From IMG/VR virus record IMGVR_UViG_2529293239_000006, positions 1-23,370 of that record: a DNA stretch of 23,370 nucleotides; one strand, 5' to 3'. The stretch is from a virus (taxonomy: Duplodnaviria; Heunggongvirae; Uroviricota; Caudoviricetes). Positions within the stretch are counted from its first letter, which is position 1, and each line of letters begins with the position of its first letter. The notes under the pieces were generated by a model. That model did not search any database and was not told the DNA's origin. It saw nothing but the letters and a program-made list of their open reading frames with translations. Positions 18,051 through 21,050 of this stretch are shown piece by piece. The translations under genes and the position numbers were made by a program.

Positions 18051-19356
18051 TTAATCATCTTCTGGGAATGATGAACTTAATAGCGTAGCTTCTGCATATT
18101 GGTCGTAGATATTACTGCTAAAGGTCATAAAGCTGGTTTCATCTGGTTTAATGGCAACTTCACCACCAAGTGAAACTTTCACAGGCTCCTGAATACGTTT
18201 GCTCAAAGCGGAGATTTCATCTCTCAGGCTTTGGATATCTGCACTCGTTAATGCTGAATCTTGCTTAATGTTGTTTAATTCTGGATGCTGGAAGTTAGCA
18301 AGATTCATAGCAGCACTATTAAACCACCCTTTAACATCATCCATAGTGAAAGCGGGTTTAAGTCCAGACTCTTTAGCCAGCTCTGGTAATTTAGCTTGTG
18401 CTTCCATTCGTTCAGGTGTAGAAGCTAATCTTTCATAACCTGCATAGATAGCACTACCAGCTAATAGCATCTTCATAGGGTTTAGTCTTGATGGTTTCCC
18501 ATTCTTTCTATTCACGTTATCCGCTGTAGTATCAGCTACCTGACCTAATCTTGTGATAGCAGTCATAAGCCCGTAAATACTTCTGGTTACACCAACAACT
18601 TTATTCACAGCAATAACACCAGCCAAGACTTTTAAACTATTAATCAAGCCAGAACCTAAAGCATCAACAACTTTCTTTTGTTCATCGGTTAAACCACGAT
18701 AAGCTAATGTCACCTCATCAAAGAATGCTCTCACTCTGTAACTGATATCGGTCAGGCTATCCACACCACTTGACATAGAAGTCATCAAGCTACCAAGAGA
18801 TTCACCAAGACTCTTACCACTTCCACCTAAACTGTTTAAAAGCGTTGTTAGGCTTCGTGTAAAATCTTGCAGACCATTTTCAGAACCTCTGAAGATACTA
18901 TCAAGCGTGGTATTCCAAGAGTTTTTCAGGTTCCCCAGTTGTGCTTGTGTGCTTTCTGAAATAGCTTTCCAGCCACCTTTAGCTGTGATTTGTTTATTCA
19001 GTTCCTGAGTGACCTTCTGAAGAGTATCGGCAGATTTTAAAGCCCCCTTCTTCATGGCATCAAATAATTCCTGTTCACTCTTTCCGGTTGCTTTAGCGAA
19101 TACCTGAACCATACCAGGAACAGCTTCAGCTAGTTGCCCCTTAAGCTCTTCAGCCATAATCTGACCCTTACCAGCCATCTGTGATAATGCTGTCAGTGCT
19201 CGCTTAATCTCTTCCTCACTTCGACCCATTAAACGAGAATAGCCAATCATATTTCTAAAAAGCTCTTCAGAACCTTGAATACCCATAGACTCTTTAGCTG
19301 AAGCACCAAAACCAGCAAACTGTGATTGCAGTTCAGCGATATCTAAACCCGTTGTT
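18051..19356 (-). pseudogene. tape-measure-domain protein, 5'-truncated by IS911
   Basis: The reading frame enters the IS911 left inverted repeat, and the apparent GTG start at 19382 is inside IS sequence. Translation carries a tape-measure core motif (...SEEEIKRALTALSQMAGKGQIMAEELKGQLAEAVPGMVQVFAKATGKSEQELFDAMKKGALKSADTL...). AT-rich. Confidence 0.65.
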
Positions 19357-19428
19357 TGAAGTGGCACACTGAATTTGGCCACCTGAACAGAGGTGATATG
19401 CTCACCTCAGAACAACACAGGTGCTCCA

Positions 19429-19731
19429 ATGAAAAAAAGAAATTTTAGCGCAGAGTTTAAACGCGAATCCGCTCAACTGGTTGTTGACCAGAAATACACG
19501 GTGGCAGATGCCGCCAAAGCTATGGATGTTGGCCTTTCCACAATGACAAGATGGGGCAAACAACTGCGTGATGAGCGTCAGGGCAATACACCAAAAGCCT
19601 CTCCGATAACACCAGAACAAATCGAAATACGTAAGCTGAGGAAAAAGCTACAACGCATTGAAATGGAGAATGAAATATTAAAAAAGGCTACCGCGCTCTT
19701 GATGTCAGACTCCCTGAACAGTTCTCGATAA
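19429..19731 (+). CDS. IS911-like transposase OrfA
   Basis: Starts [10 protein letters not shown]; an RBS-supported ATG at 19429 rather than the longer track ORF start. Confidence 0.85.
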
Positions 19732-19757
19732 TCGGGAAACTCAGAGCGCATTATCCT

Positions 19758-20597
19758 GTGGTCACACTCTGCCAAGTGTTCGGGGTTCATCGCAGCAGCT
19801 ACAGATACTGGAAAAACCGTCCTGAAAAACCAGACGGCAGACGGGCTGTATTACGCAGTCAGGTACTTGAGCTACATGGCATCAGCCATGGTTCGGCCGG
19901 AGCAAGAAGCATCGCCACAATGGCAACCCGGAGAGGCTACCAGATGGGACGCTGGCTTGCTGGCAGGCTCATGAAAGAGCTGGGGCTGGTCAGCTGTCAG
20001 CAGCCGACTCACCGGTATAAACGTGGTGGTCATGAACATGTTGCTATCCCTAACTACCTTGAAAGGCAGTTCGCCGTGACCGAGCCAAATCAGGTGTGGT
20101 GCGGTGATGTGACCTGTATCTGGACGGGTAAGCGCTGGGCGTACCTCGCCGTTGTTCTCGACCTGTTCGCAATAAAACCAGTGGGCTGGGCCATGCCGTT
20201 CTCGCCGGACAGCAGGCTCACCATGAAAGCGCTGGAAATGGCATGGGAAACCCGTGGTAAGCCCGGCGGGGTGATGTTCCACAGCGATCAGGGCAGTCAT
20301 TATACGAGCAGGCAGTTCCGGCAGTTATTGTGGCGATACCAGATCAGACAGAGTATGAGCCGGCGCGGAAACTGCTGGGATAACAGCCCAATGGAACGCT
20401 TCTTCAGGAGTCTGAAGAACGAATGGATGCCGGTGGTGGGTTACGTAAGCTTCAGCGAGGCAGCTCACGCCATAACGGACTATATCGTTGGATATTACAG
20501 CGCACTAAGACCGCACGAATATAACGGTGGGTTCCCCCCAAACGAATCGGAAAATCGATACTGGAAAAACTCTAACTCGGTGGCCAGTTTTTGTTGA
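19758..20597 (+). CDS. IS911-like transposase OrfB (made as OrfAB fusion by -1 frameshift)
   Basis: DDE-type integrase core in the -1 frame; slippery heptamer A AAA AAG at 19680-19686 in the orfA frame (tta aaa aag). Confidence 0.85.
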
Positions 20598-20605
20598 CCA
20601 CTTCA

Positions 20606-21050
20606 CATCGGTGTTTACACCGAAATGAAGGAAGACGATGTCGGGCTTTACGTCAGGGGACGGTTGCTTATTGATGATGATCCCCTCGCAAAACGCGCAC
20701 ATGCACACATGAAGGCCGGTTCGTTAACCGGCCTTTCTATTGGGTACGTCCTGAAAGACTGGGAATACGACCGGACGAAAGAAGCCTTTCTGCTGAAAGA
20801 AATCGACCTCTGGGAAGTCAGTCTGGTGACGTTCCCGTCTAACGACGAGGCGCGGATCAGCGACGTCAAGAACGCGCTGGCCCGCGGGGAAATCCCCGAA
20901 CAGAAAAAAATCGAAAGAGTCCTGCGTGATGTCGGACTCTCCCGTACCCAGGCCAAAGCATTCATGGCCGGGGGCTATGGCGCACTGTCCCTGCGCGACG
21001 CTGAGGATGTGAGCTCTGCACTGAATGCACTGAAAAATCTGAACTTCTAA
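20606..21050 (+). pseudogene. HK97-family prohead protease, C-terminal fragment (5'-truncated by IS911)
   Basis: The frame is open from the IS911 right end. Translation ...GLSIGYVLKDWEYDRTKEAFLLKEIDLWEVSLVTFPSNDEARISDVK matches the C-terminal conserved block of prohead proteases. Sits immediately upstream of the capsid gene. Confidence 0.7.

Follow-up and report, generated by a model that had tools for sequence, protein, structure and literature searches.

How did a single copy of the insertion sequence (IS) IS911 come to lie between the 3' parts of two phage genes, with different triplets at its two ends? The locus is in IMG/VR virus record IMGVR_UViG_2529293239_000006, from which a stretch of 23,370 nucleotides was analysed as a whole (hereafter the window). 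The window belongs to Shigella flexneri serotype 6 and is collinear, with 2 mismatches in 15.3 kb, with CP099865.1, the chromosome of the serotype 6 strain CCH060 (PMC10732043). The same layout was found in strain 64-5500 (CP026811.1), also of serotype 6 (PMC9455713), which has in addition an IS629 within the IS911 and has lost 252 bp from the 5' fragment of the capsid gene. We find that the joint is an IS-mediated rearrangement and not a simple insertion. The features meeting at the joint are:

18051 to 19356, minus strand: 3' two-thirds of a tape-measure gene (Pfam TMP_3 from profile position 40 of 192; homologue comparison)
19357 to 20605, plus strand: IS911 (IS3 family), 1249 bp (inverted repeats, identity to RefSeq-annotated copies, frameshift fusion, Pfam)
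20606 to 21050, plus strand: 3' two-thirds of the HK97-type prohead protease gene of an SfII-like prophage (Pfam Peptidase_S78 from profile position 73 of 165)

The element itself is a bona fide IS911. Its terminal inverted repeats, left (IRL, 19357–19383) and right (IRR, 20579–20605), have imperfect 27-nt arms (74% complementary) with 5'-TG...CA-3' ends and read TGAAGTGGCACAC... and ...GTTGACCACTTCA, respectively; megablast matches to RefSeq-annotated IS911 copies start at 19357 and stop at 20605, and the element is therefore placed at 19357–20605. It is 99.4–99.5% identical over 1249 bp to RefSeq copies annotated as "IS3-like element IS911 family transposase". The open reading frame (ORF) orfA occupies 19429–19731, the A AAA AAG (A6G) motif for −1 frameshifting lies at 19680–19686 and orfB extends to 20597. 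The in-silico −1 fusion of orfA and orfB gives 389 aa, the length of the transposase annotated in CP099865.1, and contains the rve domain (PF00665, E = 8e-30) and an N-terminal HTH_Tnp_1 domain (PF01527, E = 5e-13). Every feature examined for IS911 and the IS3 family is present; only the features expected of a simple insertion are lacking. The window copy differs from two mutually identical Escherichia coli copies at six positions (19556, 19587, 20116, 20173, 20196 and 20534), all of them amino-acid changing in OrfA or OrfB; exact protein look-ups of OrfA and OrfB gave no record. These six private changes suggest an old copy that may no longer be under selection.

The left flank ends in ...CCCGTTGTT and the right flank begins with CATCGGTGT..., so that the triplets next to the IS are GTT and CAT, with no direct repeat. 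IS3-family insertions are expected to carry repeats of 2–4 bp (PMC3299598), and the rule by which we placed the boundaries was calibrated on simple insertions of IS911 and ISEc52: an IS911 inside an IS66 tnpC gene (L053) is flanked by GCG on both sides and an ISEc52 inside gspK (L054) by GGC on both sides, in agreement with that expectation. Moving either boundary of the window IS911 by up to 6 nt revealed no direct repeat of 2–9 bp, with the one exception of TGTT, which was rejected as a target repeat because 6 nt of protease-homologous DNA would have to be counted as IS. A missing repeat is common, however, and does not tell by itself: six of the eight IS911 and ISEc52 loci inspected, the window among them, lack one.

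The strong evidence is the non-contiguity of the flanks. The sequences on the two sides of the IS belong to different elements, and in E. coli LZSFT34 their homologues are 3 Mb apart. An origin from far-apart, unrelated parts of the genome was nevertheless ruled out, as the two flanks are neighbours at a distance of about 34 kb in the unrearranged layout of E. coli ACN002. An 8-nt extension of the flank seen in one match (H18) was also considered as a shared site and dismissed as a chance T-run. The tape-measure gene lacks its first 734–743 nt (intact homologues have 2040–2133 nt) and the protease gene, which is 99.0–99.8% identical to E. coli prophage genes, lacks the first 206 of its 651 nt. 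An earlier note on this DNA, made from the sequence alone, had described an IS911-like element at 19354–20608 that has no 3-bp direct repeat and joins two unrelated genes, each 5'-truncated at an IS end. All of this holds, including the flank strings quoted there, except for the limits: the element was correctly located, but each end had been drawn 3 nt too far out, into flank bases. The note had also named what would undo its view, namely ends that were slightly misplaced together with a matching repeat and contiguous flank homology in related genomes; the ends were indeed misplaced, yet no matching repeat emerged at the calibrated boundaries, and the flanks are not contiguous.

The order and strand of the genes around the joint indicate what kind of rearrangement took place. 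On the left, the tape-measure remnant is followed by:

17123 to 17914, minus strand: Dit-like distal-tail ("baseplate") gene, the last gene of an element located between lafU and dinB (Pfam Dit_like)
16012 to 17076, minus strand: dinB (DNA polymerase IV), which anchors the left flank in the chromosome (genome comparison)

The note had proposed a comparison with a related prophage in which the portal-protease-capsid block is intact, and E. coli ACN002, whose protease and capsid genes are 99.6% identical to those of the window, provides it. Its unrearranged order is lafU+ dinB+ yafP+ ... proB+ proA+ thrW+ int− ... terminase+ portal+ protease+ capsid+ tail+. E. coli 1218KP adds an element with the tape-measure and Dit genes (both +) upstream of dinB and on the dinB strand. 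In the unrearranged layout, with this type of prophage at thrW, downstream of dinB, the two breakpoints are therefore about 34 kb apart and on the same strand. The window reads dinB− Dit− tape-measure 3'−, then IS911 from IRL to IRR, then protease 3'+ capsid+. Two 3' parts whose 5' ends both face IS911, from genes that share a strand in the unrearranged layout, indicate an inversion and not a simple deletion; a deletion in that layout would leave the 5' part of the tape-measure gene fused to the 3' part of the protease gene, and a single deletion therefore does not fit. In strain 64-5500, dinB is continuous with the block rtcB-prfH-pepD-gpt-frsA-crl-phoE-proB-proA-thrW, which runs inverted with respect to the late genes and ends in a truncated integrase. 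The integrase end of the prophage thus stayed at thrW, and the late region is now found, in inverted orientation, beyond dinB. The suggestion of an IS-associated deletion or of recombination with another IS911 had accordingly named the right kinds of event, but a single deletion is at odds with the geometry.

A second inversion, which contains the IS911 joint, could be followed at both of its ends. The features concerned are:

13372 to 14681, plus strand: IS629 copy A, 1310 bp (sequence comparison)
21639 to 22948, minus strand: IS629 copy B, 1310 bp (100% inverted repeat of copy A)
14682 to 21638, no strand assigned: segment inverted by recombination between the IS629 copies, holding the IS911 joint (reciprocal 3-bp duplications)
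21065 to 21638, plus strand: 5' part of the major capsid gene, which IS629 interrupts (Pfam Phage_capsid positions 1–77)
12737 to 13371, minus strand: 3' part of the major capsid gene (Pfam Phage_capsid positions 86–280)
14682 to 15029, minus strand: IS66-family tnpA, its 3' end cut by IS629 copy A (sequence comparison)
22949 to 23370, plus strand: the IS66-family element continued, end of tnpA and then tnpB (sequence comparison)

The 3-bp duplications of the two IS629 copies, TAC from the capsid target and GTT from the IS66 tnpA target, are swapped reciprocally between them. Draft contigs (L005–L009) join 21638 directly to 13371 with TAC present once, which gives an uninterrupted capsid gene, and the IS66 sequence rebuilt with a single GTT matches E. 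coli IS66 copies in one piece (99.3%). Because TAC and GTT were exchanged reciprocally and both uninterrupted targets were found elsewhere, the inversion of 14682–21638 by recombination between two IS629 copies is proven at both ends. The same draft contigs begin in the right end of IS911 and continue through the protease junction into the uncut capsid gene; the IS911/protease junction is therefore older than the IS629 events. By analogy, this IS629 pair indicates that the same mechanism has been at work in the region, and so favours reading the IS911 joint as an inversion.

The history of the left side can be approached through relatives, which were compared on the basis of a shared rtcB allele interrupted by an IS110-family element. 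In two of these genomes (CP026840.1 and CP026842.1), the lafU-dinB region contains no element. In a third, CP026766.1, the element is present with a tape-measure allele 100% identical to that of the window over 550 nt, and the sequence reads ...CTAAACCCGTTGTT TGAGCTAATGAC... through the serotype 6 breakpoint, with the same left sequence CCCGTTGTT. This genome thus contains the empty site, which runs on as tape-measure sequence and not as protease. In the same genome, the tape-measure sequence meets an IS911 IRL 147 nt further upstream, in the same orientation and with no repeat, and the IRR abuts the element's own large recombinase gene, the recombinase/lafU-side sequence reading CCACTTCA/GGTGAGGTATTAGCG. 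We read this arrangement as an internal deletion of about 8 kb in the element, with IS911 at the joint. In CP026828.1, the element is diverged, and its IS911, oriented the same way relative to the tape-measure gene, has a third pair of endpoints. Across the window, CP026766.1 and CP026828.1, the IRL-side endpoints are at least 147 nt apart and the IRR-side endpoints 222 nt apart. The IS911 copies of these three sequences share a G at IS position 760 (window 20116), where an A stands in the two E. coli copies, which are identical to each other and come from a chromosome and from an enteroinvasive E. coli (EIEC)-type plasmid. The comparison suggests, as its simplest reading, one resident IS911 with lineage-specific adjacent deletions. 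A resident IS911 with an adjacent deletion would account for the lack of any tape-measure 5' fragment joined to IS911 on record, and the loss of the tape-measure 5' end was probably a separate event, confined to the element that carries the gene. The joint recurs widely, with the 141-aa protease fragment in 53 index blocks and the 438-aa tape-measure fusion on 15 contigs, so that this IS911 copy appears to be fixed in the lineage and is probably old.

From these observations, we propose with moderate confidence the following path. As the relatives suggest, an IS911 would have been resident in the tape-measure/Dit element between lafU and dinB, and an IS-adjacent deletion at its IRL would have left the 3' 1.3 kb of the tape-measure gene. 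On the geometry described above, the protease gene of the SfII-type prophage at thrW, at a distance of about 34 kb, would then have received a second IS911 in the opposite orientation, and homologous recombination between the two copies would have inverted dinB...proA-thrW-int...portal-protease 5'. The window IS911 would be a hybrid, its IRL with the tape-measure flank and its IRR with the protease flank, and GTT and CAT could therefore not match. IS629 later entered the capsid gene and the nearby IS66 element, and recombination between its two copies inverted 14682–21638, a step that is directly visible in the exchanged duplications. Negative searches suggest, finally, loss or displacement of the reciprocal IS911 joint and of the early, terminase and portal part; the outcome is a defective prophage that still carries oacC.

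On the protease 5' side, the expected reciprocal joint would read ...CATGGATGAACCCAT/TGAAGTGG. The missing N-terminal parts of the tape-measure and protease proteins were used as queries against a collection of 5.8 billion protein clusters. The ending ...KSLAQT-EV..., predicted for the case that the tape-measure 5' end survived, was found in none of the 46 tape-measure N-terminal fragments whose sequences were read, and ...HRMDEP-IEV(AH* or VNKNWPPS*) in none of the 20 protease N-terminal fragments read; several fragment matches were frameshifts or junctions with other IS. BLAST searches with the 5' part of the tape-measure gene, the remainder of its element, the terminase-portal-protease 5' region and the early region of ACN002 found none of these in the fetched serotype 6 loci, about 40 kb around the joint in strain 64-5500. 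The right junction was not found in a species-representative genome collection, which does not include this lineage. On this negative evidence, from about 40 kb around the joint, the reciprocal joint appears to have been lost or moved. The proposal in the earlier note that other IS911 copies might carry the missing 5' parts led to no such copy within that distance, and the predicted fusion ORFs did not occur among the protein fragments read.

Several points weigh against the proposed path. No second IS911 was found within about 40 kb of the joint in 64-5500, and with neither the partner nor the reciprocal joint found, it is the geometry that argues for the inversion step. The negative protein searches hinge on how genes were called in each assembly. 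The G at position 760 was compared with two E. coli copies only, and could be general in this Shigella cluster; the serotype 6 IRL junction could also be an independent insertion 150 nt from that of CP026766.1. The ancestral layout was taken from E. coli strains and not from a direct ancestor. Finally, the tail side is also rearranged (IS-joined to ykgR/ecp, inverted), which implies more events than the path needs.

The alternative that survives best is a deletion, either between direct IS911 copies or as one long IS-adjacent deletion, after an earlier unrelated inversion had placed dinB-thrW head-to-head with the prophage. A single step would then have taken away the 5' part of the tape-measure gene, the remainder of its element and the terminase-portal-protease 5' region, in keeping with the apparent absence of both 5' parts from the protein fragments read and from the locus of about 40 kb. 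Such a history would not be out of place in a region with many other IS and at least two further inversions, and IS-adjacent deletions are clear around this IS in the relatives. It needs, however, an extra inversion whose endpoints were not observed, and CP026766.1 shows that the tape-measure 5' part can be lost by an internal deletion of the element with no prophage involved. We regard this alternative as possible but rather unlikely.

More doubtful still is a one-step transposase-driven event, whether intramolecular transposition into the protease gene (an inversion with duplication of the IS) or movement of the IS with no target duplication. The final structure would be identical, with the old flank at IRL and the target at IRR, and movements of other IS with no target duplication have been documented at the centre of large rearrangements (PMC11708052, Ngan et al. 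2024). The circular copy-out/paste-in intermediate of IS911 nevertheless gives simple insertions with 2–4 bp repeats (PMC3299598), and the sequence holds nothing to tell one step from two. We consider it improbable that a single transposase-linked event carried one end of the IS to a remote site and, with no target duplication, rearranged some 34 kb; if it did, the joint would be a natural, fixed example for an IS3-family copy-out/paste-in element.

Two further explanations can be dismissed. An ordinary IS911 insertion whose 3-bp duplication was mutated away or misplaced by a few bases has nothing in its favour but three nucleotides, TGA, that the start of the IS shares with the intact tape-measure sequence; it is excluded by flanks whose homology to two different elements reaches the very ends of the IS, with no repeat at plausible shifts. 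A misjoin in assembly is equally far-fetched, since, although IS copies are classic misassembly points, the same adjacency is present in two independent complete chromosomes, CP099865.1 (CCH060) and CP026811.1 (64-5500), and many draft contigs end in matching IS911 ends at each side.

IS911 is among the five IS that have multiplied in all Shigella, where recombination between IS copies is recognized as a source of deletions and rearrangements (PMC7373316, on Shigella genome reduction). The joint resembles the hybrid IS copies with no target duplication described in that study and in PMC11708052 (the E. coli long-term evolution experiment and others) in its mismatched flanks, its truncated neighbours, its fixation in an IS-rich lineage and the reciprocal-duplication signature at the neighbouring IS629 pair. 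It differs from them in that the IS911 partner is not available and the reciprocal signature was seen for IS629 only. Unlike reference IS911 insertions, the window copy has no 3-bp target duplication, and in 64-5500 the same IS911 is split by IS629. The literature searched contained no description of this IS911 joint. It is an ordinary IS-mediated rearrangement, an instance of a well-known process in already annotated genomes, and has little general significance beyond that of a textbook signature of IS-driven genome decay in Shigella.

The truncated tape-measure ORF starts at a GTG inside the IRL of IS911 (19367 or 19382). This start is borrowed from the left repeat, and a 438-aa protein is therefore listed publicly; the 438-aa "tape measure protein" of public annotations is a junction artefact. 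The remnant of the tape-measure/Dit element extends over approximately 17056–19356, and homology to lafU-dinB loci free of the element ends at 17055. A small element of about 11 kb is located between lafU and dinB in E. coli 1218KP, APEC O18 and GB089, with the Dit gene beside dinB and on the same strand; the Dit-dinB order of the window is that of 1218KP. The tape-measure and Dit-like genes are the sole tail genes of this element, which also encodes HNH, Dam and HTH proteins and a large and a small serine recombinase. In some E. coli and Shigella it occupies lafU-dinB, where either orientation occurs (1218KP and CP026766.1 versus CP026828.1); in LZSFT34, where it splits yecE, it is circularly permuted. 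Its DNA was matched in 465 of 5426 E. coli genomes. This small element may be a phage satellite. Two other candidates were set aside, a tape-measure fragment of S. flexneri (P0040) that is from an unrelated locus, and P0193, which belongs to non-serotype-6 strains.

The right flank belongs to a longer remnant, the remainder of which is:

1 to 12688, minus strand: tail and head-completion genes of an SfII/SfI/SfV-like prophage remnant (identity to Sf phages)

Window positions 1–13371 are 96.8–97.6% identical to the tail and head-completion genes of phages SfI, SfII, SfIV and SfV, and the AT3 acyltransferase gene oacC lies directly outside the window start (neighbourhood in L015–L017). By these similarities, we identify the phage genes as the published oacC-carrying SfII-like prophage remnant of serotype 6, the structure of which is known from draft contigs ending in the head region (PMC4206707). 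Like the remnant described by Wang et al. 2014 (PMC4206707), it has tail and head-completion genes more than 95% similar to those of SfII, oacC beside the tail-fibre genes and adjoining IS629/IS630; that study describes neither the IS629 inversion nor the head-side boundary, at which IS911 links the protease gene to the element on the dinB side. The joint thus defines the head-side limit of this defective prophage, which had not been described before; the oacC gene on the prophage encodes the O-antigen acetyltransferase of serotype 6. As in the serotype-converting phages SfII, SfIV, SfI and SfV integrated at thrW, the late genes (97%) and the integrase beside thrW (98–99.5% identical) are conserved; in contrast to those phages, the prophage is split here, with an integrase fragment at thrW, the late region inverted beyond dinB and the middle missing.

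The truncated integrase of 64-5500 retains 278 of 387 aa and is 98–99.5% identical to the integrases of SfII, SfIV, SfI and SfV. It lies about 17–27 kb to the right of the window end (L038/L046), beside proA-thrW, and is cut by an IS629-like element, after which an unrelated island with a Peptidase_S6 autotransporter follows. In Sb227-type genomes, the integrase is intact at 387 aa. The portal and terminase genes were not found by BLAST in the roughly 40 kb around the locus in 64-5500. Their loss from the genome is likely, given the 40 kb searched and the protease 5' fusion ORF being unrecorded. The earlier note's view that the portal/terminase side had been removed thus stands for the surroundings of the joint and is likely for the whole genome; a truncated integrase survives at thrW. 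The tail sheath gene has a premature TAG at 10126–10128 (Gln143 to stop) relative to an intact 498-aa homologue, which splits it into ORFs of 142 and 337 aa, and the same split is present in draft contigs of other strains. With its integrase truncated, its protease and capsid genes broken, portal and terminase not found within about 40 kb and a stop in the sheath gene, the prophage is unable to excise or package.

The DNA past oacC and its adjacent IS629 varies among serotype 6 genomes. In CP162080.1 it consists of Rac-like prophage genes, and CP162059.1 and CP160647.1 have an inverted ykgR-ykgM-ecpR there; this variability indicates that further IS-mediated rearrangement may have affected the tail side. 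In the window, at 15030–15560, the rtcB gene is interrupted by the IS66-family element, with an rtcB 5' remnant at 15081–15344, and is also cut past the window end by the IS110-family element shared with CP026766.1, CP026828.1, CP026840.1 and CP026842.1. In 64-5500, the additional IS629 entered IS911 at the equivalent of window 19594/19595, and the missing 252 bp correspond to 21387–21638, beside IS629 copy B; both are strain-variable IS events inside serotype 6. The IS629 junctions in the capsid gene and in IS911, which vary among strains, could serve as lineage markers.

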